Origin: an uncultured Chloroflexia bacterium
GTDB lineage: Bacteria; Chloroflexota; Anaerolineae; Anaerolineales; UBA4823
Assembly (NCBI GenBank): GCA_963774935.1
Contig: CAVZGO010000007.1
Location: 407,861-471,860, forward strand
Length of the DNA stretch: 64,000 nucleotides
Direction: 5' to 3'
Below the pieces are notes generated by a model. The model saw nothing but the letters and a program-made list of their open reading frames with translations, was not told the origin of the DNA and searched no databases. The position numbers and the translations under genes were made by a program. Positions 2,343-33,302 of the stretch are shown one piece after another (positions within the stretch are counted from its first letter, which is position 1; the number at the start of each line of letters is the position of its first letter).

Positions 2343-2363
2343 TATCCATTTAGCGTTATCATT

Positions 2364-3744: not shown

Positions 3745-3805
3745 CCATGACTGAAAGGCTGCAGGCTGGCTGCTTATACCATTTATATAAGGATACTTTA
3801 TCATC

Positions 3806-15690: not shown

Positions 15691-17355
15691 TCATGGTTCC
15701 TGATACCCATTCCGAAGGAAACTTCCCCTCCCCGTTCCCCAGAGGATCCGCGCCTGGCTCGTGCCCGGCAGGTCGTAGACCACCGCGCCTGAATGCGCCG
15801 TCAGCAGCACCACCTCCAGGTCGGCGTCCAGGTCGATGTTCGCCAGCGTCGGCGCCGCCAGCGCCCCGTTCCAGTCTCCCGGGTATGCCGCTGGCAGCTC
15901 GACCTCCGCCAGCCGCCTGCCCAGGCTGTCCAGAATGTGCAGCTTGCCCGTCTTCTGGCTGCCCTTCTGCGTCCACGACGCGAAGATGACTTCCGCATCG
16001 CCATCGTTGTCCAGGTCTGCCACCACCGGCTCCGAGGCGAAGCGCAGGATGCCCTCCGCCGGGTCCGTCACCGCGTAAGGCCAGTCGCCTTTCTCCGTCT
16101 TATCCAGCCAGTAAGCGTGCAACCGCCCATCGTAAGACGGGAACAGGATTTCCAGCCTCCCGTCGCCGTCCAGGTCAGCCGGCACCGGGTTGGGCACCGC
16201 TGTCTCGATCAGGTTGTAATCCTCGCTCAAAGGCGCTGCCGCCCCATCCGGCGTGGGGAGGACCGTCCAATCGTAGCCCGACGCCGCCCAGCGGCTGCGG
16301 TCGGCGTTGAAGATAAATACCATCTGGTACAGGCTGGTGTACGGGTCTGTGCCGCAGTTGTACACATTCCCCACCACCACGATCTCCCGGGCGCCGTTCC
16401 CATCCAGGTCCACCAGGACCGGCGCTGAATCAGCAAAGTTCGGGCGGTGCTCGCTCCCGCAGTTGGCATAGCCGCGCAGGTCTACTGCGTGGTCCACGTG
16501 CACCCCCACCTGGCTCCAGACTTTTGGGCCAACTGGATTAAAGCCGTTGTACATCGCGTTTGCCGGGAGCTGGTTCCCACTCCGGTCCAGTGCCGTGATG
16601 TAGTGTGTGTCCGTCGGACCGATAATCTCCTTGAAGCCGTCCCCATCCAGGTCGCCCACCGCCGCGTTCTGGTTGTACATCCCCCAGCCGTAGCCCGGGT
16701 CGCCGTCCCGCCGCGCCGGCCAACCCGCCCGCACCGAGCCATCCGGCTCGTAAACGCTGAGCTGCTTCGTCGCCCCGCCGCTTGCCCTGCCCACGATGAT
16801 CTCCACCAGCCCGTCATCCTCCAGGTCCGCCAGCGCCAGGGTGCGGATCTCCCCCGCCCCAAACGGGCTGCGCTGCCAGTCGATCCCACCCGCACTGTTG
16901 TAAACCGTCAGCAGGTCCCCGCCGCGCCCGGCAACGATCTCCAGGTCGCCGTCGCCCTCCAGGTCTCCCACCCCGATCCCCGGCCAGACCCGGCTGCTGT
17001 TCTCCGCCCGCCATTCCAAAGCCCCCGTCTCCCCATCCAGCGCTGCCAGGTCATACGTCCCTGCCAGCACCTCCATCTGCGGGTCGCCGTCGATGTTAGC
17101 CACAGCCGGGGAAGAGTACCAGCCCGTCTCGCACCACGAGGCGTAGCACCCGCCGCGCTGCCATTTCAGCACCGGCGGTTGGAGACCGGTGAAGATCATC
17201 GGCAGGTAGATCGTCGAGCCGGAAGTGGGGGATAACGGTATGGCCTGGGCCGAGGGAAATATGGGACCTGGTAGAGCTGCAATTAGAATCGCCAGGAACA
17301 TTGATCGCAGTACAAACCGCAGAGCAGATTTTTTATGGAGGTAGGAAGCTACCAT
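15691..17355 (-). CDS. Secreted FG-GAP/VCBS-repeat protein (beta-propeller type)
   Basis: The protein has a signal peptide (MFLAILIAALPGPIFPSAQA). It carries repeated D-x-D-G-D Ca-binding/FG-GAP motifs: ANIDGDPQMEVL, GDLEGDGDLEIV, ADLEDDGLVEII, GDLDGDGFKEII, VDLDGNGAREIV, ADLDGDGRLEIL and ADLDNDGDAEVI. Confidence 0.78.
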   Translation of the reverse strand: MVASYLHKKSALRFVLRSMFLAILIAALPGPIFPSAQAIPLSPTSGSTIYLPMIFTGLQPPVLKWQRGGCYASWCETGWYSSPAVANIDGDPQMEVLAGTYDLAALDGETGALEWRAENSSRVWPGIGVGDLEGDGDLEIVAGRGGDLLTVYNSAGGIDWQRSPFGAGEIRTLALADLEDDGLVEIIVGRASGGATKQLSVYEPDGSVRAGWPARRDGDPGYGWGMYNQNAAVGDLDGDGFKEIIGPTDTHYITALDRSGNQLPANAMYNGFNPVGPKVWSQVGVHVDHAVDLRGYANCGSEHRPNFADSAPVLVDLDGNGAREIVVVGNVYNCGTDPYTSLYQMVFIFNADRSRWAASGYDWTVLPTPDGAAAPLSEDYNLIETAVPNPVPADLDGDGRLEILFPSYDGRLHAYWLDKTEKGDWPYAVTDPAEGILRFASEPVVADLDNDGDAEVIFASWTQKGSQKTGKLHILDSLGRRLAEVELPAAYPGDWNGALAAPTLANIDLDADLEVVLLTAHSGAVVYDLPGTSQARILWGTGRGSFLRNGYQEP

Positions 17356-17380
17356 TAAGAAATTCCTGATAAATTGTTGT

Positions 17381-18068
17381 TGTCAATCTAAAAACCGACC
17401 ACCTTTGGGCGACCGTTCGAAATGAAAGACGAGAACAGGCATCTCTGGTAAGGTCCGGTTCCTGTCTCGGTTTGGGGGTAAGGTAATTGTAATCCAAGAC
17501 GTTGGCCTCCATCAGGCTTTTTGCCCTTCCAACATGCCCTGGCGAAAGAGGAACTACTCGCCCACCAGCTCTAGAATATGAGCATGGTGTGTAAGGATTG
17601 AATTCCAGCGGCAAGTCGGCTTCCCTTCGTCTGCGTTTTCGCCGCTCTTGGCTGACAAAATTGTGCACCGAACCGGCACTCCCCGGGTAGCCTTCGCTGC
17701 CTTGAATTTCGTACATGCGATAGGCGGTATAGCGCTGCTTGAGATGTAGTTGATCGCTCTCGTCCAGCAATTCAAGTATTCGTTGTTTGTAAGGTCCAAG
17801 TACCAGCTCAGCTCGTGGCTGTTTGAGTGTGTACGGCTCTGGCGCCGGATTCTGTGATTGCTTTTCGGATCGTCTCTCGATCAAAGCCTAACTTCCGATG
17901 GATGGCTCTCCTCCGTGTTTGTCGGGGAAGAATGCCACAATTCTCAAAGATTAACCAGTTACGTTTCGCTTTTCAGATTCCGATGGATGTCAGCCACCGA
18001 TTCCGATCTACCACCAAAAAGTGGCCGACATCGTCCGGAATCGCTGGCCGGTTTCTTCCGGATTCACA
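17381..18068 (-). mobile_element. Internally deleted, frameshifted IS21-family element (istA N-terminus fused to istB C-terminal tail) with imperfect terminal inverted repeats
   Basis: The reverse strand carries an IstA HTH (RRAIHRKLGFDRETIRKAI) and then LGPYKQRILELL...GYPGSAGSVHNFVSQERR. This jumps to an IstB-type tail (LTHHAHILELVGE-). The ends are 17381 TGTCAATCTAAAAACCGACCAC and, on the reverse complement at 18068, TGTGAATCCGGAAGAAACCGGCCAG. Several ATCGGAAT/TCCGGA sub-terminal repeats are present. Confidence 0.55.
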
Positions 18069-18442
18069 TGCACCAAAATCAATTTCTTTGGATTTATATC
18101 TTTTTTTAATAACAATTGTTTTGTGAAGATAATATTTTCAGATGTGTTGGTAGATTTATTTTCTATCAATATAGACTCTTCAGGGACACCAGAGTGAATT
18201 GCTACTTTGGCAAATTTATCTGCTTCTGGCTCAGACAATTTATTACGGGTTATTCGACCAAACCCGACTAAGAAGGCTATAATCGGTGCCTATTTGTCAA
18301 TAAATAGCTCTGTTCCATACTGAGCGGTTCTTATATCACTGTTTCCTAACACTAGTATACAATCTGATAGCTGAAGAGGCTGGCTTAGTTTTAAGTAATT
18401 CCATAACTTCTTTGCTAAATTATCAACAAAGTGATTATTCAT
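18008..18442 (-). pseudogene. DUF218 (YdcF/SanA/ElyC-like) gene remnant with an in-frame TAG and a truncated, decayed 3' end
   Basis: The reverse strand from the ATG at 18442 reads MNNHFVDNLAKKLWNYLKLSQPLQLSDCILVLGNSDIRTAQYGTELFIDK*APIIAFLVGFGRITRNKLSEPEADKFAKVAIHSGVPEESILIENKSTNTSENIIFTKQLL... The SEAE...GVP...E..S.NT.EN motif is the DUF218 pattern. The stop is at 18290-18292, and AT-rich coding ends at the IS end near 18068. Confidence 0.65.
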
Positions 18443-18454
18443 ATAACGAATCCT

Positions 18455-20497
18455 CTATTCTTGATTAGGGATTGACTCTAACAAAGCTCTGGTATACGCT
18501 GCTGCTGCGATTGATGCGTACTTTTGCCAATTATCTCCCTTGTTTTTATCACAATAATCACATATTCCTCGAATAACCAGATATCCTACTTGATGATTCC
18601 AAGTGGCATCAGCTATACCTGAACCTTCCATTTCCACTGCTTTAACATTAAATTGATTTCTTAATTCATCTCTTTTAAGAGGGTTTTTAAGAAGTTTGTT
18701 TGCCGATGCAATTGAACCAATAAAAATTCTTGGTTCCCCTTCAACTCGATCTAGATCGTATGGATGAGTAATAACTAGATTATTATTTATTGAGTTTACG
18801 AGAATGTCACTCTCACCTGAAGGGCGAGTAACTCCAAGTTGCTTTGTAGCATAATCGATATAATTTATCCAAGGTCGCTTGCCTTCTAACTCGGCGGCTT
18901 TTAACAATCGAACTCCTTCCAGCAAGAATGCGCTAGGAGGTCTAGGGGGATAACGAAATATTGTCTCGGTTATTGTTTCTTTGTCGAAGTCATATTGAAT
19001 AACACCTCTCTGATCAGATACAACAATGTCCCCCAAACGTACATGTTCAGAAGGTTTTTCGGGATAGGGGATGCCGCCTGCAATTCCGACCATTATTATC
19101 GAGTTTACAGAAGGGAAGTGCTCGAGAAGCATTGTGGCTCTACTAGCTGCTATGTTGTTTCCCATATCCGCAAGAGCTAAAATTACTTGATGAACTGAAC
19201 CCTCTTTCGAAGGAATTCCTCCTTGAAGATACCTTCTCCCTGCACCACGTCCCGGTACTTCTCTGTTTACTGGGCCATCAATAAGGACTTTAACTGCTAT
19301 ATATTCCTCTGGAAGAGCTGTTATTATTCCGACTGTGGGAATCAAGAGTGATTTATTAAAATTTCTTGATTCAGAGGGTGATCCATAAATATTAAGTTTT
19401 TTACTTGAGGCTGATTCTGCCATTTCAATAAATAATCCAATTCTTCCGTCTACAACTGCTTGCTTAATTAGCAATCTAATATAATCAGGATTTGAAGGTA
19501 CTATTGATTTATATTCAAATCCAAACCTGGATGCTAATTGTTCTAAAGTGTATACATCGAGCCTACTAGCAATTTGTTTCGCTTTATTTAATAATTCTCC
19601 TTCGGATGTATTAGATATATCTGTTCTAGACGCAAGTTCACCATCGGCGTGTTTATTAATTACATTGTATAAGGAAGAAAGTTGATGTGTAAATCCATAC
19701 TCTTGTGCAAGTGTTTCCGCCTTTGACGCAGCTTCCAAGCCGCCCGTAACTTCATCAGACGATAGTAGTAGATCCGCTAAGAGAATGTTAGTCTGTGTTA
19801 TTCGAAATTTATCTGTCTGAGGAATCACTTTTAAAGTGTCTGACACCAGGTTTTGAGCAATGTCGGTTTTCCCTTTTGTAAATTCAACAATAGCAAGTTT
19901 CTGTAAACTATATCCATAATCACCAGGCGTGACTCGACTTTCTAGTAATGAAAGACTTTCTCTTATTTTTTGCTCAGCTGAGGTGAAGTTCTCTAATTTC
20001 GTCAAGACAGTGCCAATTCTCAATAAAACTCTCCCTCTCAATATTTTGAGATCACCAATACTGTCTATTATTGTTAGAGCATCGTTATAATTTCTGAATG
20101 CCTGATCATAATTTTTTCTCATTTCGAAACACGCACCCAAATACCAACTTAAAATGGCCAATTTGTCTTTTTCGCCAAGCTGATTCCAAATAAATTGTGC
20201 TTTCTTATAAAGGGAATATGCCCCACCGGTTCCAGATATAATGCCCTGGTCTCGTCGGATACTTCCTAATTCAGTTAGGGCGCGGGCTTGTAACCTTAAA
20301 GCAGATGTGTGCTGTGTAAGTCCTTGTAACCCGATAATAATGTCCTGAAAAATATCTACTGCTCTTTCAAATTCAAACCGACTAGATAGCTGTTTAGCAG
20401 ACTCGAATGCGAATTCAAGATCCTGTACTCGAGAATTAAATACATTTTCTTGCTTAGCAACTTTATATAATTCTGTTAGCAAAGAGGATGGATCCAC
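18455..20497 (-). CDS. 680-aa TPR-repeat protein with a C-terminal nucleoside phosphorylase/nucleosidase-fold (PNP_UDP_1/MTAN-like) domain
   Basis: The N-terminal ~290 aa are helical-repeat/TPR-like (e.g. AYSLYKKAQFIWNQLGEKDKLAILSWYLGACFEMRKNYDQAFRNYNDAL). The C-terminal ~300 aa read VGIITALPEEYIAV...MGNNIAASRATMLL...IIMVGIAGGIP...LGDIVVSD...VEMEGSGIADA...VIRGICDYCD, the phosphorylase-superfamily pattern. Confidence 0.8.
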   Translation of the reverse strand: MDPSSLLTELYKVAKQENVFNSRVQDLEFAFESAKQLSSRFEFERAVDIFQDIIIGLQGLTQHTSALRLQARALTELGSIRRDQGIISGTGGAYSLYKKAQFIWNQLGEKDKLAILSWYLGACFEMRKNYDQAFRNYNDALTIIDSIGDLKILRGRVLLRIGTVLTKLENFTSAEQKIRESLSLLESRVTPGDYGYSLQKLAIVEFTKGKTDIAQNLVSDTLKVIPQTDKFRITQTNILLADLLLSSDEVTGGLEAASKAETLAQEYGFTHQLSSLYNVINKHADGELASRTDISNTSEGELLNKAKQIASRLDVYTLEQLASRFGFEYKSIVPSNPDYIRLLIKQAVVDGRIGLFIEMAESASSKKLNIYGSPSESRNFNKSLLIPTVGIITALPEEYIAVKVLIDGPVNREVPGRGAGRRYLQGGIPSKEGSVHQVILALADMGNNIAASRATMLLEHFPSVNSIIMVGIAGGIPYPEKPSEHVRLGDIVVSDQRGVIQYDFDKETITETIFRYPPRPPSAFLLEGVRLLKAAELEGKRPWINYIDYATKQLGVTRPSGESDILVNSINNNLVITHPYDLDRVEGEPRIFIGSIASANKLLKNPLKRDELRNQFNVKAVEMEGSGIADATWNHQVGYLVIRGICDYCDKNKGDNWQKYASIAAAAYTRALLESIPNQE

Positions 20498-20503
20498 AAC
20501 GTC

Positions 20504-21037
20504 TCATCCTTTAGTGTTAAGCGTATTCTGAATATTAGTGATAGCTTCATCCAATAATGCAGTTAGTTGTTGAGTTTCATCACGAAGCACACGTTTGAGA
20601 ATATTAACTTTTTTATCTAACAAACCAAAATCAGAAGCTGGGTTAAAAAACATATTCCATAAAGATTGAGCAATTTGATTTACGAAACCAATTTGCTCAT
20701 AAACGGTAATTAATCGTTTATGTAATAAATAATCGGATAAGCCGAACTGTACTCCTTCTTGTGCAGCTTGCCATGCGTCATCTGATATTAACGGATAGCG
20801 AATATCGTCTTCTGTTGACTCAATTGCGAGGAATTTTTCAATTTCGTTTTTATTCTTTTGCAACTCATCAAGTATGGTCCTTAATACCGTATTAGCACGT
20901 TCCTCTTGTTCCCTAAGCTTTATACGTCGGTCAAGCCAGAGACCGGTCGGTATGGCTAGGATTGCACCTATTAAAGCACCTACCATATTAGATAGGACAT
21001 TAATCCAAAATTCATTACCCAAATTAAGGAACCCCAT
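20504..21037 (-). CDS. 177-aa protein with one N-terminal TM helix and a long helical/coiled-coil domain; unknown function
   Basis: The TM helix is VLSNMVGALIGAILAIPTGLWL, followed by charged helical sequence (DRRIKLREQEERANTVLRTILDELQKNKNEIEKFL...). The gene sits 6 nt upstream of the TPR-PNP gene. Confidence 0.6.
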   Translation of the reverse strand: MGFLNLGNEFWINVLSNMVGALIGAILAIPTGLWLDRRIKLREQEERANTVLRTILDELQKNKNEIEKFLAIESTEDDIRYPLISDDAWQAAQEGVQFGLSDYLLHKRLITVYEQIGFVNQIAQSLWNMFFNPASDFGLLDKKVNILKRVLRDETQQLTALLDEAITNIQNTLNTKG

Positions 21038-21065
21038 ATTAGTACGATGATAGATAAAAATAGTT

Positions 21066-22399
21066 TTATACCCGTTGAATTACAGCACCAACTCCATTAA
21101 GCCTCTCATCAAAGGATTCATAACCGCGTTCTATTTGCTCAATATTTAACACCTCTGTTATATCCGAAGCTACAAGTCCCGCAATTACTAGAGCTGCCCC
21201 AGCCCGCACATCACTCGCACTAACAACGGTACCATTTAGTTTTGTTGGCCCATAAATTTTAACGGCATGGAATAATCCGGCAGTACTTTCATAAGGAAAA
21301 TTGTATATTTTAGGATCTACATCAGGATTGAAATACTCTATTTTGGCTTCCATTTTTTTTAATTCATCCAAATGAGTAAATCTTTGTGAAAATATTGTCT
21401 CGTGAAAAACACTCACACCATGCATTTGTGTCATTAAAACCTCTAACATTGGTACCCAATCCGTCGAAAATCCCGGATATGGACGACTAGTAACAGATAA
21501 CCCCGTTAATTTAAAATCGGAGCATTGAACCTCTAGAATTTGTGATTCGCCCTCATGACCTAGTTCAAATCTGACTCCTTTCTGGCTTAATATTGCCAAG
21601 AGGGGAAGTAGATGTTCTTCATTGACACCTTTGAGTGTTATTGGACCATGACCCAATGCCCCAGCAATTACAAATGTGGCAGCATCGTTTCTGTCGGGCA
21701 TGATTGTAATGTCAACATTAACAGGACTATATTCACCGGATACCCCCTGCACCTCAACAATCCCATTTTCGCCTCGCTTCACATTTGCACCCGCTTGTTG
21801 CATAAACAATATAAAATTATCAATTTCAGGTTCTAAAGCGGAATTTTGAATTATGGTCGTACCCTTTGCACATATTGAAGCAAGTATTGCATTTACTGTC
21901 CCATTTACTGTGGTTTTGGTGAATGTAATGATGCCCCCAGTTAATCCTTTTGATGTTATTTCGTAATACTCATCCTTTTCTATAACGGTTGCCCCTAGTC
22001 GTCTAAAAGCATCTAAGTGCCATGTCACTTTTCTCCTACCGATCTGATCGCCGCCAGGATGCCAAATTCTAGCACTACCAAACCTGCTCAATAATGCCCC
22101 CGCAAAAAGAAAAGAACCGGTAGATTTTGCTGTGACTTCAGGGGGAATTTCTTGAGGTTCAATATTAGTGGTGTCGATTAATAAAGTGTGTTCATCTAGT
22201 GAATTAATCTTTGCGCCTAAAAATGAAAGTATTTCAACCAATGCAGCCGAATCGTTTATTTTTGGAACATTTCTAAGTAAATACTCACCAGGAAACACAA
22301 TAGTCGCTGGAATAATTTTTTGTGCGGCATTCTTAGCGCCTTGAATTTTGACCTCCCTTTTAGAATAGGGCTATGATGGATTACAAACTTTGTAGTCAT
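21066..22399 (-). CDS. MurA-type enolpyruvyl transferase (EPSP-synthase fold) with Asp at the catalytic-Cys position; N-terminus split by an apparent 1-nt deletion at the C-run 22355-22357
   Basis: ATG 22399 (SD aaggaagga) gives MTTKFVIHHSPILKG. Adding one G continues this as EVKIQGAKNAAQKIIPATIVFPGEYLLRNVPKINDS... Other motifs are PGGDQIGRRKVTWHLDAF (E. coli MurA has PGGCAIGARPVDLH), GFSTDW and DVRAGAALVIAGL. Confidence 0.8.
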
Positions 22400-22416
22400 G
22401 GTGTATCCTTCCTTTT

Positions 22417-22956
22417 TCAATTAAATAGCCCGAGTTGTCTCACCCATAAAAGCAAAGTGATGCTAGGTAAGTGCGAAATTTCACCCTTCTCAATCATATC
22501 AAAAGCAGTTGCAATATTAAATTTGCCGATTTGTATTTTTTCTGTTGGATCAGGCTTTGGGTTACCTATAGAAAAATCTTTAACGACATAAAACCATATT
22601 TTACTTAGTAGTGTGTCTGTTCCCCAATCTGCAGATCCAATCGATATCCATGAAGTACTTGTAAAGCCAGTTTCTTCTAATAATTCTCTCTTAGCCGCAT
22701 CGATTGGTAATTCATCTTGGTCTATTCCCCCTCCAATAACTTCCCATGTTTCTTTTGCAATTGCGTAACGATATTGTTTTACTAACATTATGTTTCCACT
22801 GTGAGTTATAGGCAATATCATTACGCCTGGTTTCATTTCTAATACTAAATGGGAGGTTGTGTTTCCGTTATGCTCACACAACTTATCCTCACGAAGAGTT
22901 AACCAGGGCGATTTATAAATATTAGAACTTGATAATATTTTTGTATTGCTCACCAT
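22417..22956 (-). CDS. Nudix hydrolase, ADP-ribose pyrophosphatase (NudF)-like
   Basis: The Nudix box is GGGIDQDELPIDAAKRELLEETGF, preceded by LVKQYRYAIAKETWEV, the NudF-type pattern. Confidence 0.8.
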   Translation of the reverse strand: MVSNTKILSSSNIYKSPWLTLREDKLCEHNGNTTSHLVLEMKPGVMILPITHSGNIMLVKQYRYAIAKETWEVIGGGIDQDELPIDAAKRELLEETGFTSTSWISIGSADWGTDTLLSKIWFYVVKDFSIGNPKPDPTEKIQIGKFNIATAFDMIEKGEISHLPSITLLLWVRQLGLFN

Positions 22957-22979
22957 AATATCCCTTTGAATATTCTTTT

Positions 22980-23645
22980 CTAGATTGATTCGCCTAAAAC
23001 ACCCTTTACCACAACAAATGCCTCATAATACCTATTCTTTACATGATTGTCCGGATGTGCTTGGATAGCCCACCATTTTGCGCGGGTTGATACTACCTCC
23101 GGGTGCATGTATGATTTTCCTTTTTCAGAAAAATGTAGATTAATAGCCTGCCTCTTTATTTCAATAAAATTCGTGATATCTACAAAAATATTTGGGGCAA
23201 AATCCCCATTTTGGGTTGGTGGTTCTGAATATAGAATCCAAAATATATTGGAGTTGCGTCTTCCTGCATTTAAAACCGAAGAAGCAACAACAACATGATC
23301 TTGATGACCGTATCCCAATACTTGGGGATAATGTGTTATCAGAATAGAAGCAGAAGTCAGGGCAATATAATTTTCAACTATCGACACAATTTCATGGTTA
23401 TATAATAGCTCTCCATCAGGGAGATTCTCATTGTAAATTTGAAAGCCCCCAAGCTTAGCAGCTGCTTGGGACTCAATATGACGCTGACGAGATGATGTTG
23501 TTCTACTTTTTTCTCCATTTGTTAATTCTAGAACGGTTACTTTCCATCCAGCGTGACTAAGGCGTACAAGCGTACCAAAACATGTTAATTCATCATCATC
23601 GGGATGAGCAAAAACTGCTAACACATTAGGAGTATTATTTATCAT
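22980..23645 (-). CDS. PIG-L/LmbE-family N-acetylglucosaminyl deacetylase
   Basis: VLAVFAHPDDDELTCFGTL, the AHPDDE motif, is followed by ...HQDHVVV... (second metal-binding His/Asp motif). Confidence 0.8.
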   Translation of the reverse strand: MINNTPNVLAVFAHPDDDELTCFGTLVRLSHAGWKVTVLELTNGEKSRTTSSRQRHIESQAAAKLGGFQIYNENLPDGELLYNHEIVSIVENYIALTSASILITHYPQVLGYGHQDHVVVASSVLNAGRRNSNIFWILYSEPPTQNGDFAPNIFVDITNFIEIKRQAINLHFSEKGKSYMHPEVVSTRAKWWAIQAHPDNHVKNRYYEAFVVVKGVLGESI

Positions 23646-23651
23646 AGAAAA

Positions 23652-24635
23652 TCACCTATTGAATTTCACACCTGGTTTTATGCCATATTTTTTTGAAAAT
23701 GATACACTATCCATTTCTTCATCATCACCAAGTTGGAGTCGTTTTATTATTATAGATTTTGTAAGACAAGCAACCAATAACCCATTATCATTAATGTCAA
23801 TAATACTCCCTGGTTCATAATTTGTTACTTGCTCACCCATGGCGGCTTTCCAAATTATTACTTTTTCCCCGTTCCAAAATGTAAACGCACCAGGATATGG
23901 ATGGGTAAGTGCTCTTATCCAATTGTATTGATCTAAACTCTCCCGATACCAATCAATTACTCCATCTTCTGGCCTTCTTTTTTCCCAATATGTAACCTTT
24001 GTTGGATCTTGTGGAATACGAGGGGCAGTTCTATTTGCTAACAATGGTAGACTATCTTTGACTAACTGGTAATGGAGGATTGCTATTTTTTTATAAATAC
24101 TCGATGCATCATCATTGATCTCAATCATGTATTCATTCTGGGCTATCATGTCCCCTGCATCTGCCTCCTCTTCTAGATAAAACATAGTCACACCGCTTTT
24201 AGTAAAACCCTTGATAATTGTCCAGGGGATAGGTGCTCTACCCCTTCCTATCGGTAGTAAGGTGGGATGAATTCCTATGCAGCCATGAGTGTTATCATGG
24301 CGTTTAGAACTATTGTATTTGTTCTTTGGAATGTCTAGTAACTCACTAGGTGCCAATTCGGACCAGCCGATAATAAAGATAAAATCTGGTGATAGTTTCT
24401 TTATTTGATTGTATACGTCTATTGTCTTAATACTTGAAATCTTGAATAAGGGTGCTTTAGCTTGATTAGCTAAAGAATCGAAAGATGTGTATCCCGATGT
24501 TTTTTCGGCTTTTTCCTCTGATAAGCTAAAAACTGCAATTAATTTAGCCTCTTGACTCTTAAACACGTCTAAATCTATAAGTCCATTTAATGCGAATTGA
24601 CCTAACTCAACACCGCTTATGAATACAATATTCAT
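23652..24635 (-). CDS. Formyltransferase of the Fmt/ArnA type (N- and C-terminal formyltransferase domains)
   Basis: HGCIGIHPTLLPIGRGRAPIPWTIIKG aligns with the Fmt segment [20 protein letters not shown]. ...EEADAGDMI... holds the catalytic Asp region. The C-terminal part IDWYRESLDQYNWIRALTHPYPGAFTF is Fmt_C-like. Confidence 0.8.
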   Translation of the reverse strand: MNIVFISGVELGQFALNGLIDLDVFKSQEAKLIAVFSLSEEKAEKTSGYTSFDSLANQAKAPLFKISSIKTIDVYNQIKKLSPDFIFIIGWSELAPSELLDIPKNKYNSSKRHDNTHGCIGIHPTLLPIGRGRAPIPWTIIKGFTKSGVTMFYLEEEADAGDMIAQNEYMIEINDDASSIYKKIAILHYQLVKDSLPLLANRTAPRIPQDPTKVTYWEKRRPEDGVIDWYRESLDQYNWIRALTHPYPGAFTFWNGEKVIIWKAAMGEQVTNYEPGSIIDINDNGLLVACLTKSIIIKRLQLGDDEEMDSVSFSKKYGIKPGVKFNR

Positions 24636-25062
24636 CTTGGCTTCCCCTCTCGAAATATGAAATATGTGAGAGATTTTCTACTATTGTACAACCAATTACA
24701 TAACCAGATGTGCCTTTTGATAACTCTTGTAATCAAAACAGACACTCAGAATAAAACTCGGTTCTCATACCGATCCTGAAAACCCACTTAAGATTAAAAA
24801 AGGGGAAATGATAAGGATCATGGTCGTATTTAACTAGCCCGTATAACCTTGTAGTGAATATAAATTTTCTTCTTTATTGCGATCATCGAAATATATGACC
24901 TATGACCCGCTAACGATACCTTCCGCAAATTTTTCTGATTATATCGTAACTATCATCTTCGGTGGTCTAATTTGGGTAACAGCTATGTCTGGTGACTAAA
25001 AATATATTGTCAAATAATAGCGAGGGCATTGCCAAAGTGACTAAATGGATCATCCGGTTAGT

Positions 25063-25750
25063 TCAGGATACATTTGGACATAATCCGACACCGCAGCTAC
25101 GCACAAGTTTGTGACGACGGCGGCGGCCCCGGAAAAAGGGATGACGATGTTGGTACCAGTATTGGGTAGCTTCTCGAACAGCCTGACATACTTCTTCCCA
25201 GGTCTCAAAGCGTTTGCCTTTCAATGCCAGCGAACGCAGAATTTTCCACCACGGCTCGATCAGGTTGAGGTAAGCCGCATATTTGGGTTGAAAAACGAAC
25301 TGCCACCGGGGATGGTGCAAACTGAACAACAACACATCGGTCGCTCGGTGCGCCGGCAAGTTGTCCAAAATGGCATTGATCTGCAAATCGGCTGGCAGCT
25401 ATTGGTCTACTTTCTCCAGAAAATCCACAAAGTTCTTCGCCGAACGGCTCACATACGGTTCGGTAAAAACTTCTGCATCGCTTGGTTTGAGGGCTCCAAA
25501 GGTGTAACCTTTTCCACGTCGACCATAATCAATCTCTTGTTTGGCTCTTTTCTGTCAACCAGAAAATAAGAAAGGGTCTTCTGTCAAAGCCAGTTCGCCA
25601 ACGCTGGCTTTTCGTGCAACGGCTCGAAATCCACGTTGGTGAGATCAATATCATCACGCAGGTGCTGGAACAAATGCAAAAACCGGGGCATAGCGCACGG
25701 GGAAACCGGAGTAAGCCGCACAGCTTAACCGGAGCATGGCTCACACACAA
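25063..25750 (-). pseudogene. IS630-family (DDE_3, Tc1/mariner-like) transposase remnant with an in-frame stop and frameshifts
   Basis: The reverse strand reads ...DYGRRGKGYTFGALKPSDAEVFTEPYVSRSAKNFVDFLEKVDQ*LPADLQINAILDNLPAHRATDV...FQPKYAAYLNLIEPWWKILRS, the DDE_3 core. The upstream part is only recognisable in other frames (PFLIFWLTE). Confidence 0.7.
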
Positions 25751-26160: not shown

Positions 26161-27303
26161 TCAAACCTTCCCCTCAAACGCGCGTCTCAGCAGCCCTTGA
26201 AACAGCATCTCTGCCTGTCTTTCTGTCTCGCGTTGCTGGATGCGTAGACGATCGTAGCGACGCACGACGTGTGCAAAAAGATCTTGATTTGCTAGAGGGG
26301 GCATAATAGTTTTGATCTTCTTGATGTCTTGAACATTGACATGTGGCGATGCAGAGCCACCAACCATTCTCTCAGCTTGTTTATAAATACTATCCAATTC
26401 AAGGACAGCCCATAAAAATTCGGGGGTTGCCTTCTGAGGATCCGCTCTAAATAGCATTATTCGTTGACCAAGACATATTTTCTTATTAGAATTTTCGGGA
26501 ATTCGTGCAGCATTTCCAAATCGAGCACCTTCACGACAATAAATCACATCATCTCCCATCGGAGTTCCTCGCTCTATCCTCTTGGCATATTCTTCGTATT
26601 CAACATATTTTGTGGTTGACCAGTCAAGGTAACCATTTTGTATATCAGAGCTTCTTACACTTGCATACTCAGTCTCGATTAAAGTATGTATTGGTGTTTC
26701 GTGTGGGCAATCCAAGATTGTTTCACACAAATCATTAATATGCCCGATTTCCCATCTTTTTAAGTTCGTTTCCGGCTCCCCAAACATCTCCACAAACACC
26801 GACTGCAAAAACGACTCCCCCAGCTCGCGCGCCGTGCGCCGCAGTTGCCTCAGTCGGTCTGCTTTCGCCAGGATCATCGCGATGCGGCGCTGCTCGGAGT
26901 GAGATGGAAGAGGAACAATCATCCTTTCAAGAAAATTTCGATTTACATGTGGTATTGTCGCCCCAGTACAATTGTCTTGAATTTCCTCGAATTTGCTCCT
27001 CAAAAAGTAGCCTAAATATGGACCATAAATAGTATCTTTATTTGGTCGTAAAATAGCCAGCGTGCTACCTGCATATCCTGTCAACCCGAAACCAATTGTT
27101 CCAGCGTTAGCACCATCCCAAGCAATCAGAACATCATTTACATTTGCAACAACAGCTTTTTCTACTTGTGCATACTTAGGTTTCCCGCCTGGTCGTAAAT
27201 CTTCAATTTGCAAATAAGGATACATTTCGGTTTTCGGTTTGCTAAAAACTTCGTCTGCTTTATTGCCTTTGATAATCGTGACCATTTCGCCAAGTGCTGT
27301 CAT
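26161..27303 (-). CDS. hsdS: Type I restriction-modification specificity subunit HsdS (two target-recognition domains)
   Basis: The protein is 380 aa. The conserved central helix is EQRRIAMILAKADRLRQLRRTARELGESFLQSVFVEMFG and the C-terminal helix is DRLRIQQRETERQAEMLFQGLLRRAFEG. These flank two variable domains. The gene overlaps hsdM by 4 nt. Confidence 0.9.
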   Translation of the reverse strand: MTALGEMVTIIKGNKADEVFSKPKTEMYPYLQIEDLRPGGKPKYAQVEKAVVANVNDVLIAWDGANAGTIGFGLTGYAGSTLAILRPNKDTIYGPYLGYFLRSKFEEIQDNCTGATIPHVNRNFLERMIVPLPSHSEQRRIAMILAKADRLRQLRRTARELGESFLQSVFVEMFGEPETNLKRWEIGHINDLCETILDCPHETPIHTLIETEYASVRSSDIQNGYLDWSTTKYVEYEEYAKRIERGTPMGDDVIYCREGARFGNAARIPENSNKKICLGQRIMLFRADPQKATPEFLWAVLELDSIYKQAERMVGGSASPHVNVQDIKKIKTIMPPLANQDLFAHVVRRYDRLRIQQRETERQAEMLFQGLLRRAFEGKV

Positions 27304-29042
27304 TTAAGCAACTCACCTAACTCTTTGATCTCCTCCTTCATCACCTGCTCCAGCCGCACCAGCCGCTCCAGCGTTACCTCCGGTTTCTCATAGTACACCT
27401 CGTCCGCTTCCACCTGCCGGTAGCGGCTGGCGGACAGGTCGTATTTATTCGCCTTGACCTGCGCCTTGCTCACCCAGAACTGCCGGCTGAGCTGCGCTAT
27501 CTCTGCCTGCAGCGGCGCGATCCGCCCCTCCAGCGCCACCAGCCGCTCCTGCGCCTCCGCCAGCTCCCCTTGCCCAGAATGGGGAGCGGCAACCTGAGCG
27601 TAGCTCAGGTCGGTGAGGGACTTAGGCCTGATCGCCGCCTCAAACCTCAGCCGGTTGATCTCTGCCTGCAGTCCCAACCGCTGCGCCTTGAGCGGCGCCG
27701 CCTGCGCTTGAAGCTCCTCCAGGCGCACCTGCCGCGCCTGCTGGAAGGCGGGCTCGCCGCGCTTCTGCCAGCAGGTCAGCACGTCCGGGATGTCGTTCTC
27801 TGCTACCGGCACGCGCTTGTCGTCCAGCGAGTAGCCGTCGTGCGCCATGTCGTAGAACCAAATCTCGCCCGTCTTTGCCCCGCGCGTGAACAGCAGCACC
27901 GCCGTGGATACCCCTGCATAGGGCCGGAATACCCCCGAAGGCATCGAGATCACCCCGTCCAGCCGGTTTTCTTCGAGTATCTTCTTGCGCAGCGCCACGT
28001 GCGCCTTACTGGAGCCAAACAGCACCCCGTCCGGCACGATCACCGCGCAGCGCCCGCCCATATCCAGGGCGCGCAGGATCAGGTGCACGAACAGCAGCTC
28101 GGTCTTGGTCGTGTCCCCCGGCAGCGTCGGGCTGGCGTCGCCCTTGTCCACCGCCCCCTTGAAGGGCGGGTTCATCAGGATCACGTCGTACTCGCGCTCG
28201 TCGGTGAACGCCTTGGAAAGCGTGTCCATGTAAAAGAACTGCGGTGAGTCGATCCCGTGCAGCATCAGGTTCATCGAGCCAATCCGCAGCATCGTCATCC
28301 CCGAATCGTTGTCGAAGCCGCGCAGGAACCTCTCGGATTTCATGAACTCCCGCTCGCGCTCATTCAGCCGGTCGCCGATCAGGTGATGCGGTAAGCCCTC
28401 TTCGTCGTAAGCCAGGATTTCTACCGAAGTGCCTTTTTCCAGCACGTACTGGTAGGCGTTCACCAGAAAGCCCGCCGTTCCGCCTGCCAGGTCGCCGATC
28501 CGCTCGGTGGGCTTGGGCGCTGCCATCTGCACCATCATGCGGATGATATGCCGCGGCGTGCGGAACTGCCCGTTGCGCCCCGCCGTGTTCAGCTTGCTCA
28601 GCAGGTATTCGTACAGGTCGCCCTGCACGTCCTGGTTCTGCTGGCTGATCTCCATCTGGTCGATCAGCTTGCAGGCTTCGATCAGCAGGCTCGCCTTGCT
28701 GATCTTGCACTCGGCGTTTGCCATGTAGCGCTCGAAAGAGCTGCCCTGTTCGCCCAGCGTGCGGAACCACGGGAAGATCGTCTCCTTCAGATGGCGCAGC
28801 GCCTGGCCCGCTTCGTACTTCGTCCAGTTCTGCCAGCGCATCTCAGCCGGGATTCTGCCCGGGTACTCCGCTTCGCGCCGCCGCGCCTGGCGCTCCAGCG
28901 CATTTTCGCGGTCGTCCAGGCGCTTCAAGAACAGCAAATACGAAAACTGCTCGATCGCGTCCAGCGGGTTGGTCAGCCCGCCCGACCAGAACTTGTCCCA
29001 CAGCGCGTCCACTTGCGATTTGAGTTTCGGATCAGTCAGCAT
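27300..29042 (-). CDS. hsdM: Type I restriction-modification DNA methyltransferase subunit HsdM (N6-adenine), with a long C-terminal coiled-coil extension
   Basis: The HsdM_N part is LWDKFWSGGLTNPLDAIEQFSYLLFLKRLD. The AdoMet motif is DLAGGTAGFL and the catalytic motif is VILMNPPFKG. Confidence 0.93.
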   Translation of the reverse strand: MLTDPKLKSQVDALWDKFWSGGLTNPLDAIEQFSYLLFLKRLDDRENALERQARRREAEYPGRIPAEMRWQNWTKYEAGQALRHLKETIFPWFRTLGEQGSSFERYMANAECKISKASLLIEACKLIDQMEISQQNQDVQGDLYEYLLSKLNTAGRNGQFRTPRHIIRMMVQMAAPKPTERIGDLAGGTAGFLVNAYQYVLEKGTSVEILAYDEEGLPHHLIGDRLNEREREFMKSERFLRGFDNDSGMTMLRIGSMNLMLHGIDSPQFFYMDTLSKAFTDEREYDVILMNPPFKGAVDKGDASPTLPGDTTKTELLFVHLILRALDMGGRCAVIVPDGVLFGSSKAHVALRKKILEENRLDGVISMPSGVFRPYAGVSTAVLLFTRGAKTGEIWFYDMAHDGYSLDDKRVPVAENDIPDVLTCWQKRGEPAFQQARQVRLEELQAQAAPLKAQRLGLQAEINRLRFEAAIRPKSLTDLSYAQVAAPHSGQGELAEAQERLVALEGRIAPLQAEIAQLSRQFWVSKAQVKANKYDLSASRYRQVEADEVYYEKPEVTLERLVRLEQVMKEEIKELGELLK

Positions 29043-29755: not shown

Positions 29756-32494
29756 TCAGACCTCTAACCCCTGGGTGAAATGGATCAATTCAGAAACCTC
29801 GTTGGGCGAAAACCAGCGCTCTACCACATCCACGCCGAATTTGTCGAACGGCGCCTCGTACAAATCGGCGGTCTCCAGGCGCCGCTTCTGCAGGAACACG
29901 CTCTGCACCGCCCGCAGAAAGCGGATCTGGTCGCCATTGTACGGGTGGGCTGCGATGAACTGCAGGAATTGGTGCTGCACCACCTCGCCGTAGCCCGGGA
30001 TGGCATCTACCGCCAGCACCAGGCGCAGGAAGTCCAGGAAGCTATCCGCCTGCACCCCGTACGCCCGGCGGATGTTCTGCGGCGTCAGCTCCAGCGCGCT
30101 CCCCGCCAGCTCTGAGCGCAGCACGCGCTCCAGGTCGAGCAGCGCCAAATCGTCCGGGGTCTCGCCCCGCCCGATTGCTTGCAGCGCCGGGTGGCTTTCC
30201 ACAATCGCCAGGATGCGCGCTTCCACCCGCAGGCGGTATTCTTTGACGTACACCTGCTCGCCGCTCTGCGTCAGCAGGATGTAGCCGCTCAGGTCGATCC
30301 GGTCGGGCAGGTCCAGCATCAGGAAGTTGTTCACTCGCCGCCGGTTTTTCATCTGCGGCGCCAGCCCGGCTGCGATCTGGCTGAGCTCGGCAGGCTTTGC
30401 CTGGGCCAGGTTGTTGGGCGTGCACTGCCGCACCAGCGGCGCCAGCGCAGGGTCCTCGGTGACGAATTCTGGCAGGCTGGCGGCGTCCTCCACAATCGAC
30501 TGCACCAGGGCGCTCGCCTCCCTGCCTGTGCGCTGCGCCAGCTTCAAGCGCTCGATCTTGTGCTGGAAGGTCTCCGCTGGCACGTCCACCTCCGCCGCCA
30601 GGCGCAGCAGCGGGCCGACCTTCAGGCGCAGAAAATCGATCTTAGACGGGATCAGGTAGCCCCAAAACGCCTCGCCGAAGGCTTCTTCGATCTCGGGCAG
30701 CACCCGCCGCACCGAGAACGATTCTTTGGGGATGCGGTTGACCTGCGCCAGCAGGTCACCGGTCACCTGCTGGCAGCCGGGGTCGTTTTGCTCGCCCAGG
30801 TAGGTCTCCAGCAGCTTCAGGCGCGTGTTGAACAGCGCCACCAGCACCGGCAGCTCCTGCCTCAGCGCCTCCTCGGGCGCCTTGTTGAAATCGTTCTCCC
30901 AGAAGTCGATCACCAGGAATTCCTGCTTGCTCCCGCCCGGCAGCCGCTCGGGGAACCGGCAGGCCGCGTTCGAGCGCGTGCCCCGCCCGATCATCTGCTC
31001 CAGCTTGATGCGTGACTGCACCGGTTTCATGAATACCAGGTTGACCACCTCCGGCACGTCGATGCCGGTGTCCAGCATATCCACCGAAATGGCGATGCGC
31101 GGCAGCTCTTCCTGTTTAAAGCGCTTTACCAGTTGGCCGCGGTACTCGGATTTATACGTGATCACCCGCGCCAGGTTGGGAAACTGCGGGTACATTTCGT
31201 CGAAGGTATCTTGCAGCCGCAGGGCATGCTCCTGGGTCATTGCAAAAACAATCGTCTTACCGGGTAGCTGCCCGGACTGGTCATAGAAGCACTGCCCCAT
31301 AATTTCTTCCCACTGCCGGCGCAGCGTGTCCTTGTTGCTGACGTCTTTCTCGAGCTGCGTGCCTTCGAAATCGATCTCGTCCGGGTCAAAGCCCTGCTCG
31401 ATCAATTGGTTGCGGTCTTCGTCGCTCAGGTCGATGCCGCGGATACCCTGGCGCTGGAAGTGGGTTTGCGCTGCGTACAGGGTGTAATCCACCAGGTAGC
31501 CTTCTTCGATCGCCTGCTTGTAAAGATACAGGAAGGTCGGCTTGCCATCCCCGCAGTCGAAGACCCGGAAGGTGTCCCGGTCGATGAACTGCGCTGGTGT
31601 GGCGGTCAGCCCGATCATCCGCCCGTCGAAGTACTGCAGCACTTCGTTGAACTTGTTGAAAATCGAGCGGTGCACTTCGTCGAAAATGATCAGGTCGAAA
31701 AAAGCCGGCGAGAACTGCTCGAAGCACTGGCTGAGGGTCTGCAGGGTCACTGCATACAGCCGCTTGGTCTTATCAATCGTGTGTGAGTAGATCCGGTCGC
31801 ACGGCTCGTTTGGCAGGAACTTCTCGAAGCCGTCCGTCTTGGCCTGCTCCACCAGCGCGTCGCGGTCTGCCACGAACAGGATCGTGCGCGCCTGGTTGGC
31901 ACGCAGAAAAACGTCGATAATCGACATGGTGGTGCGCGTCTTGCCCGTGCCGGTCGCCATCACAAGCAGCGCCTTGCGTTTTCCCGCATCGAACGCTTCG
32001 CACACCCGCCGCACCGCTTCATGCTGGTAGGGTCGGTCGGTGATGCGGTTGTCGATAGCAATGCTGCTGAGCGGTTTCTGCTGCTGGCGCAGGAACAGCA
32101 GCCGCTCCAGGTCATCCGGGGTGGCAAAGCCGTACACCATCCGCTTGGGCGCTGCGCCCGCATCCAGGAAATAAATATCTGTCCCGTTTGCCAGGTAAGC
32201 GAAGGGTTGGAAGCTCTGGTGCTTATGGATCTCGGCTACGTAGTGCTCCGCCTGCTGCTGCGCCAGGCGCGGGTCGTGGCTGGTGCGCTTGGCTTCCACC
32301 ACCGCGATCACCTCACCGTTAGCCCGGTACAGGCAGTAATCCGTCACCCCGTTCCACGGCTCCTGGTCGTAGCCATCCACCGGAATCTCGATCCCCACCT
32401 GGGCGTGATTCCTCAAGTTCCACCCCGCCCGTTCCAGCGCCGGATCGATCATCTCCTTGCGCGTCTCTGCTTCCGAAATTCTACGCATGCCCAT
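29756..32494 (-). CDS. hsdR: Type I restriction enzyme R subunit HsdR (SF2 helicase/translocase + nuclease)
   Basis: The N-terminal part is AETRKEMIDPALERAGW. The Walker A motif is MATGTGKT and the DEAD-box variant is IIFDEVHRS. Helicase C motifs are TGIDVPEVVNLVFM and QMIGRGTR. The protein is 912 aa. Confidence 0.93.
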   Translation of the reverse strand: MGMRRISEAETRKEMIDPALERAGWNLRNHAQVGIEIPVDGYDQEPWNGVTDYCLYRANGEVIAVVEAKRTSHDPRLAQQQAEHYVAEIHKHQSFQPFAYLANGTDIYFLDAGAAPKRMVYGFATPDDLERLLFLRQQQKPLSSIAIDNRITDRPYQHEAVRRVCEAFDAGKRKALLVMATGTGKTRTTMSIIDVFLRANQARTILFVADRDALVEQAKTDGFEKFLPNEPCDRIYSHTIDKTKRLYAVTLQTLSQCFEQFSPAFFDLIIFDEVHRSIFNKFNEVLQYFDGRMIGLTATPAQFIDRDTFRVFDCGDGKPTFLYLYKQAIEEGYLVDYTLYAAQTHFQRQGIRGIDLSDEDRNQLIEQGFDPDEIDFEGTQLEKDVSNKDTLRRQWEEIMGQCFYDQSGQLPGKTIVFAMTQEHALRLQDTFDEMYPQFPNLARVITYKSEYRGQLVKRFKQEELPRIAISVDMLDTGIDVPEVVNLVFMKPVQSRIKLEQMIGRGTRSNAACRFPERLPGGSKQEFLVIDFWENDFNKAPEEALRQELPVLVALFNTRLKLLETYLGEQNDPGCQQVTGDLLAQVNRIPKESFSVRRVLPEIEEAFGEAFWGYLIPSKIDFLRLKVGPLLRLAAEVDVPAETFQHKIERLKLAQRTGREASALVQSIVEDAASLPEFVTEDPALAPLVRQCTPNNLAQAKPAELSQIAAGLAPQMKNRRRVNNFLMLDLPDRIDLSGYILLTQSGEQVYVKEYRLRVEARILAIVESHPALQAIGRGETPDDLALLDLERVLRSELAGSALELTPQNIRRAYGVQADSFLDFLRLVLAVDAIPGYGEVVQHQFLQFIAAHPYNGDQIRFLRAVQSVFLQKRRLETADLYEAPFDKFGVDVVERWFSPNEVSELIHFTQGLEV

Positions 32495-33302
32495 CTTCTC
32501 CCACCACCCGCTCCAGGTTCTCCTTCGTCAGCAATCCCAGGTCAAACCCCGGCTCGACAAACGGGCGCACATCCGCCCGGATGCTCTCCCAATCCAGGTC
32601 GCCCAGGCGCTCGTTCACCCGTGACCGCCAGTTGGCTTCGGTCAGCAGCCCTCCCTGCCAGCTCGTTTGCGCCAGGGCGTTGTTGAGCAGCACCAGGTTG
32701 GGCGGCGGCCAGGCCGGGTCGCTCAGGTACCAGAGCAGGTCGAATAGATCGCGCCCCTTGGTGTAAGGTCGTTGTAAGATCGCGTGCAGCTTTCCTGAAA
32801 GCAGCGAGGCCTTGTCGTGATGCTGGAGCTGGAGCACGAAATAACGCCGCACCACGCTGGTGGTCAGTCCCGCACCGGCTGGCGGGTGGGTATCCACTTC
32901 CAGCTTGATCGCCAGCACTTCGCTGCGCTGTCCGGACAAGCCAAGCTCGTAAAGCAAGCCGGGGAAGCGCACAAAGGCGCTGTGGACCGCCTTTTGATCG
33001 TTGATCTTTAATTCAACAGGATAACCTTCTGGCATCAATTCGGCCCGGATGGCCTGCAAATAGCCGCGGAAATCGTAGGCAGCCGGTTCGCCGCCTTCCA
33101 GGGCAAAATCCAGGTCTTCAGAGTAGCGCCCGTGGCCGTACAGGAAGCGCAAGGCTGTGCCGCCGTGAAAAGCCAGCGGCATCATTGCCCCTGCCCGCTG
33201 CAGTGCGGCCAAAATGCGCGCCTGCAGGTACTCACGCGCCAGGTTGCGCCCCTGCGCTGGCGTGCTCGCCTGCCGCACCAGCTCAGCCAGGTGCTCTTTC
33301 AT
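32481..33302 (-). CDS. abiEii: AbiEii/AbiGii-family nucleotidyltransferase toxin (type IV TA)
   Basis: LAFHGGTALRFLYGHGRYSEDLDFAL is the family signature. The gene overlaps abiEi by 4 nt and hsdR by 14 nt. Confidence 0.85.
   Translation of the reverse strand: MKEHLAELVRQASTPAQGRNLAREYLQARILAALQRAGAMMPLAFHGGTALRFLYGHGRYSEDLDFALEGGEPAAYDFRGYLQAIRAELMPEGYPVELKINDQKAVHSAFVRFPGLLYELGLSGQRSEVLAIKLEVDTHPPAGAGLTTSVVRRYFVLQLQHHDKASLLSGKLHAILQRPYTKGRDLFDLLWYLSDPAWPPPNLVLLNNALAQTSWQGGLLTEANWRSRVNERLGDLDWESIRADVRPFVEPGFDLGLLTKENLERVVGEDGHA

Follow-up and report, generated by a model that had tools for sequence, protein, structure and literature searches.

PNP-fold ATP nucleosidases are a recently recognized class of immune effectors common to bacteria, fungi, and animals. 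In bacterial conflict systems, the PNPase was described as an effector that is linked to effector-associated domains (EADs), and the principle by which EADs couple effectors to other components was also set out (Kaur et al., PMC7159879, PMC8195603). The architectures of the immune PNP clade include those of the relatives of the protein described here, combinations of PNP with tetratricopeptide repeats (TPRs) among them, and the tested members of the clade, Cap17, DtcC, a fungal NLR PNP, and a sponge Death-PNP, are all toxic ATP/dATP nucleosidases (Rousset et al. 2023, 10.1101/2023.01.24.525353). Here, we describe a compact PNP case that is free of a nucleoside triphosphatase (NTPase): a 680-residue protein encoded in a 64,000-nt stretch of contig CAVZGO010000007.1 (assembly GCA_963774935.1), from an uncultured Chloroflexia bacterium. 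This stretch is referred to as the window. The protein joins a TPR solenoid, a four-helix module, and a PNP-fold nucleosidase domain in a single chain. Sequence comparisons make it somewhat more likely than not that it serves as a sensor subunit, with its effector attached, in a conflict cassette that was gained by horizontal transfer and is most probably directed against phages.

The open reading frame (ORF) of the target gene is intact over 2,043 nt, corresponding to 680 codons and a stop. The start codon is GTG, an AAGGA motif is located ~11 nt upstream, and the identical start was called in the copy of the protein from a sibling assembly (P0001). An exactly identical 680-residue product is encoded in an independent Logan assembly, ERR15459710. 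An earlier note on this DNA, which gave no strand for the gene (it is the minus strand), had read the 680-residue protein as TPRs followed by a helical segment and a PNP domain. Indeed, all three segments were recovered in that order using Pfam, AlphaFold2, and Foldseek. The note's statement that no NTPase is involved also held: domain scans detected no P-loop or NTPase domain in the protein, in its gene cluster, or in any further large window ORF covered by the scans. The scans likewise detected no REC domain in the protein, no kinase in the cluster, and no CD-NTase, SAVED, or similar signal-binding domain in either.

The C-terminal domain matched Pfam PNP_UDP_1 over residues 388-658 (E = 1.2e-18; 67.9 bits against a gathering cutoff of 25.1). 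The protein also matched the PADLOC model of the CBASS-type 'PN-superfamily effector' (E = 3.7e-22), with models of 5'-methylthioadenosine/S-adenosylhomocysteine (MTA/SAH) nucleosidase (MTAN) scoring similarly. When the domain was searched by sequence against the PDB, only MTA/SAH nucleosidases were returned, the best at E ~4e-9. Conservation was evaluated using an alignment of 119 relatives and the Escherichia coli MTAN. The protein retains 69 of the 69 columns that are ≥97% conserved among the relatives, and all of the PNP motifs quoted in the earlier note occur in it. Specifically, E398, M623, E624, and D647 correspond to E12, M173, E174, and D197 of E. coli MTAN, the predicted catalytic residues being E398, E624, and D647. 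The nucleosidase assignment of the earlier note had been made to depend on such residues, and this Glu/Glu/Asp set is retained and aligned with that of MTAN. The family carries an insertion of ~70 residues (residues ~526-596) that is not found in MTAN. Finally, the protein scored below the cutoffs of the MtnN equivalog models: 90.9 vs 169 bits for PRK05584 and 45.2 vs 73.8 bits for TIGR01704. Based on the first of these scores, the domain is not a housekeeping MtnN.

Relatives of the PNP domain occur in Cyanobacteria, Chloroflexota, Acidobacteriota, and Methanosarcina, and are 60-70% identical to it over that domain only. Outside it, they are fused to REC, TIR, SEFIR, adaptors of the EAD1/2/7/8/9 types, TCADs, HEAT or pentapeptide repeats, kinases, and STAND NTPases. 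Among the 119 relatives, the PNP domain is C-terminal in 70, N-terminal in 33, and internal in 16. A 69%-identical REC-PNP protein is encoded next to a TCAD9-HisKA kinase and a REC-CHAT protein, and EAD7-PNP proteins (66-69% identity in PNP) are encoded either together with iSTAND, MoxR AAA, vWA, and nSTAND genes or near nSTAND1/NACHT-like ones. The PNP effectors that reach 60-70% identity include those of Detocs-like, STAND/NLR-like, and MoxR-vWA ternary systems. A tblastn search of plasmids returned distant matches only (28-34% identity). By these comparisons, the domain belongs to the conflict-system 'PNPase' effector pool rather than to the housekeeping MTANs. Judged by architecture and identity, and not by phylogeny, it appears to fall within the immune clade of Cap17 and DtcC.

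The N-terminal region matched Pfam TPR_12 (41.8 bits against a cutoff of 30.1) and, weakly, TPR_MalT. A full-length MAFFT alignment pushed the TPR family onto the PNP domain; therefore, residues 1-385 and the isolated middle module were modelled. The AlphaFold2 model of residues 1-385, built on a 34-sequence alignment, contains a solenoid of 13 helices over residues 3-285, with predicted local distance difference test (pLDDT) values mostly >90. Foldseek matched this solenoid to those of LGN/Pins, kinesin light chain, and NprR.

A search using residues 1-385 returned three stand-alone proteins of 373-418 residues (P0122, P0123, and P0124; 35-52% identity), and a metagenome scan yielded a fourth, encoded in locus L006. 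Over the TPR region, these four are 35-57% identical to the target, and a TPR-patatin protein from locus L007 is 32% identical. More distant homologs of the TPR module (21-31% identity) are actinobacterial XRE-HTH-TPR proteins, which dominated the matches when the TPR alignment was used as a search profile. In the alignment that includes these proteins, 19 columns are invariant, and many of these hold polar residues. The invariant residues include R82, D83, G85, E125, K167, Q199, K200, H271, and Q272, and are kept in the target. The actinobacterial HTH-TPR proteins are encoded with DUF218 and WbqC, and one (P0154) is fused to DUF218. In the window, a DUF218 pseudogene, with an in-frame stop after codon 50 and a 3' end cut off by a fragment of an insertion sequence (IS) of the IS21 family, lies directly 3' of the target. 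Based on these two occurrences, the association between the TPR module and DUF218 is old. The Streptomyces HTH-TPR genes are located in integrative elements near Abi_C, Mrr, nSTAND, and TerD genes.

The middle module of the target lies where its stand-alone relatives carry an adaptor. P0122 ends in a Pfam EAD7 domain (residues 310-370, E = 2.6e-9), as does P0124 (E = 1e-4). The tails of P0123 and the L006 protein fall below the Pfam EAD7 model yet are homologous to those of P0122 and P0124; matches among all four have E values of 1e-7 to 1e-11. In the MAFFT alignment, all four are in register with the middle module. The latter is predicted to comprise helices at residues 299-312, 315-324, 337-349, and 353-365, and is bracketed by disordered linkers at residues 286-298 and 366-385. 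Its pLDDT was 54-70 in the model of residues 1-385; when the module was modelled alone, the pLDDT was 80.5 and the predicted template modelling score (pTM) was 0.68. The earlier note had delimited an all-helical module at residues ~300-375. The all-helical character stood, while the range was slightly generous, the ordered part spanning residues 299-365.

The similarity of the module itself to EAD7 is marginal. Using hhalign, it aligned with EAD7 over 51 columns in the expected register (P = 0.011). Against the four tails, a tail-only BLAST gave E ~0.05 and Smith-Waterman z-scores were 0.5-2.5. Foldseek searches of the PDB with the module returned nothing significant, the best TM-scores being to four-helix SAP domains, and no second EAD7-like ORF was found in the 64-kb window. 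Two other folds were considered and discarded. A six-helix Death fold was rejected as Foldseek gave no Death match, and the death-like resemblance suggested in the earlier note was not borne out. A PCI-type winged helix, suggested by the motif 'LIKQAVVDGRIGLFIE', was dropped as the AlphaFold2 models contain no beta strands and Foldseek gave no winged-helix match. Overall, we lean slightly towards the module being a degenerate descendant of EAD7; alternatively, it may have replaced EAD7. Decay is plausible in that the effector is fused in cis, such that homotypic docking between EADs would no longer be selected. The note's proposal that the module is an EAD-type adaptor is strengthened by its location, at the position of EAD7 in relatives whose TPR regions are 35-57% identical; its own similarity to EAD7 is not significant.

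The earlier note had presented the protein as a candidate sensor-effector and had missed that it does not stand alone. Its gene closes a run of six genes on one strand, with gaps of 6-28 bp, that form a conserved multi-enzyme cluster (Table 1), portions of which occur again in a further five metagenomic loci. Locus L002 encodes the formyltransferase, PIG-L protein, Nudix protein, EPSP-synthase-like (i.e., MurA-like) protein, transmembrane (TM) protein, and a TPR-EAD7 protein in the same order as the window. L003/L004 contains the EPSP-like gene, the TM protein gene, and a gene for a TPR protein with an EAD7-like tail. In L005, the order is rearranged, the TPR-EAD7 gene being convergent with those of the TM protein and the EPSP-like protein. 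In L007, the EPSP-like gene abuts a gene (1368-3371) encoding a 667-residue TPR-patatin fusion, and the PIG-L and formyltransferase genes follow on the other strand. The patatin domain was identified using Pfam (E = 1e-30) and matches the PADLOC CBASS phospholipase effector. Thus, the TPR family is always encoded beside a divergent MurA-like protein, usually with the TM protein as well; PIG-L and the ArnA-like formyltransferase are present wherever the contig is long enough, and Nudix in the two closest loci. By locus, the TPR protein ends in an EAD7 or EAD7-like tail in four, in patatin in one, and in PNP in the window. A constant gene set accompanied by a sensor whose terminus is an adaptor, a nucleosidase, or a phospholipase is a signature of conflict systems. 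As side observations on L007, the TPR-patatin protein has a hydrophobic tail at its end, possibly serving to anchor it in the membrane, and the PIG-L protein (3352-4719) is 455 residues long, with a C-terminal extension of ~300 residues that has no family match.

The MurA-like proteins of the other loci are 50-65% identical to that of the window. When the latter was searched against 185,579 GTDB species genomes, the best matches were 37-39% identical and lay in canonical MurA loci only; the partner genes were present in none of 80 such loci. Members of the MurA-like clade keep K22, N23, R120, D305, D369, R371, and R397, and the protein is thus probably an active enzyme, possibly with another acceptor substrate. 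Asp occupies the position of C115 in three of the four members, Thr replaces R91 in all, and there is an insertion of ~20 residues. One lead on the product of the four enzymes comes from MurA homologs such as NikO/PolA, in which UMP, and not UDP-GlcNAc, is enolpyruvylated. The single-pass TM protein, encoded immediately upstream of the target, has no Pfam, NCBIfam, or PADLOC family, and has homologs of 43-59% identity in L002, L003/L004, and L005; in all, its gene accompanies the TPR gene in four loci besides the window. These homologs are 253-267 residues long and possess an N-terminal signal/TM segment and a Pro/Ser/Thr-rich stretch of ~80 residues. The window protein lacks both and consists just of the conserved TM helix plus the helical domain on the cytoplasmic side.

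In the window, the MurA-like gene is interrupted by a 1-nt frameshift in the run 'ctaaaaggg' near 22358: the gene has its true ATG at 22399, and past the shift its reading frame continues in the ORF at 21066-22298. The sibling assembly (L001; ENA ERZ25039462 contig_5389) has the same shift. Many genes of that assembly are split by frameshifts, the target being in three frames, the MurA-like gene in three pieces, and the inositol monophosphatase gene in two, which looks like an error-prone long-read assembly and would account for the 536-residue 'truncated' database entry P0001. On the Logan contig from ERR15459710, the MurA-like ORF is called without interruption over at least 429 residues, and the 680-residue target is intact. 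Assembly error is thus the most likely origin of the frameshifts.

The whole cluster lies in an island of low guanine-plus-cytosine (GC) content with transposase fragments at both edges (Table 1). Judged by these features, the island is foreign and was acquired horizontally. Beside it are a complete-looking type I restriction-modification (R-M) system and an AbiE pair, and the remainder of the window is ordinary chromosome. Rfam returned no match in the island, and promoters in a promoter/terminator scan were not above expectation.

Table 1. The target, its cluster, and neighbouring features, by position in the window.
Feature	Position	Strand	Evidence
Full target ORF: TPR, four-helix module, PNP nucleosidase	18455..20497	minus	ORF scan, Pfam, independent assembly
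TPR solenoid, residues 1-285, 13 helices	19643..20497	minus	Pfam TPR_12, AlphaFold2, Foldseek
Four-helix module, residues 299-365, at EAD7 position of relatives	19403..19603	minus	AlphaFold2, MAFFT register, hhalign
PNP/MTAN-fold nucleosidase domain, residues 386-680	18458..19342	minus	Pfam PF01048, PADLOC, MTAN structures, conservation
Single-pass membrane protein, 177 residues, 6 bp upstream of target	20504..21037	minus	homologs in other loci
Divergent MurA-like enolpyruvyl transferase	21066..22399	minus	domain scans
Nudix hydrolase, NudF/ADP-sugar pyrophosphatase-like	22417..22956	minus	domain scans
PIG-L/LmbE-family deacetylase	22980..23645	minus	domain scans; BshB/MshB-type likeness
ArnA/Fmt-like formyltransferase, N- and C-terminal domains	23652..24635	minus	domain scans; ArnA structures E = 2e-38
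DUF218 pseudogene directly 3' of target	18071..18442	minus	Pfam on 76-residue fragment; tblastn vs P0154 E = 1e-11
Low-GC island holding whole six-gene cluster	17950..25000		37.6% GC vs 57-68% in flanks
IS21-family transposase fragment, island edge	17333..17884	minus	NCBIfam, GC profile
DDE_3 transposase fragment, other island edge	25063..25386	minus	Pfam, GC profile
Type I R-M HsdS	26161-27303	minus	domain scan
Type I R-M HsdM	27300-29042	minus	domain scan
Type I R-M HsdR	29756-32494	minus	domain scan
AbiEii/AbiEi pair	32481-33302, 33299-33949	minus	domain scan

Comparison with described systems places the target outside the CBASS, Detocs, and STAND/NLR families, as scans for the domains that define them were negative. 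With Cap17 of CBASS and DtcC of Detocs, it shares the PNP_UDP_1/MTAN-like fold, the catalytic Asp and Glu, and the use of the domain as a movable effector unit at either the C- or the N-terminus, a 69%-identical domain occurring in a REC-PNP regulator beside a histidine kinase. In contrast to those effectors, it has no SAVED, CD-NTase, REC, or histidine kinase, and its regulatory module is a TPR solenoid. The PNP-NB-ARC-TPR STAND proteins of the Avs/NLR-like type, such as P0057, also pair TPRs with this PNP effector (60% identity), but their domain order is the reverse of that in the target, in which the switch is missing. MtnN shares the fold and the equivalents of E12, M173, E174, and D197, whereas the target scores below the equivalog cutoff, carries the ~70-residue insertion, is multidomain, and is encoded in a foreign island.

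The EAD-coupled effectors, in particular the EAD7-PNPases (Kaur, Burroughs, Iyer, and Aravind 2020/2021), resemble the target in that the PNP domains are 66-69% identical, related TPR proteins end in EAD7, and the middle module lies at the EAD7 position. The target differs from these systems in joining sensor and effector in one chain, in having neither an NTPase nor a second EAD7 copy in the 64-kb window, and in that its middle module fails the Pfam EAD7 model. The TPR / GreA/B-C / PIN core systems (Kaur et al. 2021) are also NTPase-less and couple a constant TPR region to interchangeable effectors (PNPase, TIR, and others) or an EAD. However, the target has no GreA/B-C or PIN, its effector is C-terminal where theirs is variable and N-terminal, and the partners that constantly accompany it are a set of nucleotide-sugar-type enzymes plus a membrane protein. 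Finally, the actinobacterial XRE-HTH and TPR proteins have a homologous TPR module and a DUF218 linkage, but their output is a DNA-binding HTH and the accompanying enzymes differ. By analogy, the target may work in the manner of the Cap17/DtcC-type effectors and of the effector-swapping TPR-core systems.

These comparisons suggest a mechanism. The EAD7 versions of the TPR protein would recruit an EAD7-tagged effector in trans. In the lineage of the window, the effector would have been captured in cis behind the adaptor, which would then have drifted, homotypic docking being unneeded. The TPR solenoid is the putative trigger-binding element, as peptides or protein tails are the ligands of all its closest structural counterparts. 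Candidate triggers are a protein or peptide, the membrane partner, and a product of the nucleotide-sugar enzymes of the cluster. Once triggered, the TPR module would bring PNP domains together or lift their inhibition. By analogy with tested immune nucleosidases, the PNP domain probably degrades ATP/dATP: when active, it would cleave the N-glycosidic bond to yield adenine and ribose-5'-triphosphate, and the infected cell would be arrested. As for the cluster as a whole, we tentatively propose, at somewhat less than even confidence, that it constitutes an undescribed conflict or defence system in which dedicated nucleotide-sugar-type enzymes and a membrane protein operate with a TPR sensor bearing a swappable C-terminal effector socket. 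A cassette with this gene combination was not found in the literature searched and is not represented in PADLOC as a system; based on six loci, the combination of enzymes, TM protein, and TPR protein may be genuinely new.

Several observations weigh against the interpretation of the target as the sensor subunit of a conflict cassette. For the middle module, residues 285-390 had no match to Pfam EAD7 (PF19960) at E ≤ 10, custom EAD7 hidden Markov models (HMMs) gave it scores of -0.1 to 3.2 bits, with 38-374 of 2000 shuffled sequences scoring equal or better depending on the HMM, and a search of 1.84 billion representative proteins with the module alone returned only the sibling copy and P0121. 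(The match to P0121, a low-complexity eukaryote-like repeat protein, is spurious.) For the cluster, the enzymes look like ordinary nucleotide-sugar enzymes, and neither they, the TM protein, nor the TPR-EAD7 protein matched a catalogued PADLOC defence-system model, the only PADLOC matches there being those of the Nudix protein to the candidate PDC-S07 and of a weak generic TPR model. The cassette may also be decaying, as its DUF218 neighbour is a pseudogene and IS debris flanks the island. Moreover, the independent loci number only six, most of them on short contigs, and scans for the TPR pattern found none in GTDB species genomes or viral contigs; in plasmids, the same pattern scan returned Streptomyces HTH-TPR relatives only.

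The ordinary appearance of the enzymes raises the question of whether the cluster is instead a biosynthetic or envelope-glycan operon, with the TPR protein acting as scaffold or regulator and its PNP domain salvaging a nucleoside by-product. Indeed, the four enzymes resemble those of a UDP-amino-sugar pathway (the formyltransferase matching ArnA at E = 2e-38, the PIG-L protein resembling BshB/MshB-type deacetylases, and the EPSP-like protein resembling MurA), and the XRE-HTH regulators that carry a distantly related TPR module are encoded beside DUF218 and WbqC. Nevertheless, salvage would leave the exchange of the C-terminus for patatin or EAD7 unexplained, and the domains that share 60-70% identity with PNP are fused to TIR, REC, and STAND, PNP itself scoring below the MTAN cutoff. 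In addition, the cluster is in a foreign low-GC island beside R-M and AbiE genes, and the Streptomyces relatives are also found in mobile elements, beside Abi_C, Mrr, and nSTAND. Overall, such an operon is unlikely. The exchange of C-termini bears equally on what the PNP domain produces. As the enzymes of the cluster are equally conserved with TPR proteins that carry EAD7 or patatin in place of PNP, they appear to be independent of PNP chemistry, and every tested member of the immune PNP clade is a toxic ATP/dATP nucleosidase. It is thus quite improbable that the domain, rather than depleting ATP, generates a nucleotide-derived signal or intermediate, such as a free base or phosphoribosyl product, for the cluster enzymes or another effector, although the conflict-system PNPase was first predicted to make second messengers by base release (PMC7159879) and the cluster contains a NudF-like ADP-sugar pyrophosphatase together with other nucleotide-sugar enzymes.

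The signs of decay could also mark the protein as a relic devoid of function, produced by a chance fusion in a deteriorating island: DUF218 downstream is reduced to a pseudogene, the island has IS fragments at either side, a frameshift interrupts the MurA-like gene in both the window assembly and L001, and the target, too, is frameshifted in L001. We regard this as very unlikely. The 2,043-nt ORF is intact in the window and in an independent assembly in which the MurA-like gene is also uninterrupted, and the split genes of L001 are numerous, as is typical of assembly error. Further, the target keeps the 69 conserved PNP positions and the invariant residues of the TPR family. An effector-carrying sensor subunit of an acquired conflict cassette thus remains the favoured interpretation of the target.

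Two further loci were noted. In Streptomyces (L008/L009, 6797-11526), an operon of HTH_XRE-TPR, DUF218, and WbqC genes is divergent from a radical-SAM gene whose product matches PADLOC models of prokaryotic viperins (E = 1e-13), and a HATPase_c_2 protein is also encoded there. The locus is inside an integrative element carrying relaxase, integrase, Abi_C, Mrr, and nSTAND genes, and the operon may be a separate uncharacterised conflict locus. Elsewhere in the window, a protein containing Peptidase_C39_2 and TPRs is encoded at 41215-42489 on the plus strand; it is unrelated to the target.

The family is rare, known from six loci, and its ecological weight is therefore probably small. Its interest lies in the combination of sensor, putative vestigial adaptor, and effector in one chain, with relatives that carry the adaptor alone or another effector. 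Such relatives provide direct comparative evidence for the proposed principle of EAD docking and, if the interpretation is correct, the target would be a natural 'Rosetta-stone' fusion showing that EAD7 links a TPR sensor to PNP effectors. The cassette is also a clean, clonable test system. The presence of a private MurA-like protein, deacetylase, formyltransferase, and Nudix protein together with a membrane protein suggests an unexplored metabolite chemistry coupled to suicide effectors. In that case, small-molecule chemistry, involving a modified sugar or nucleotide, would lie upstream of an abortive-infection effector.

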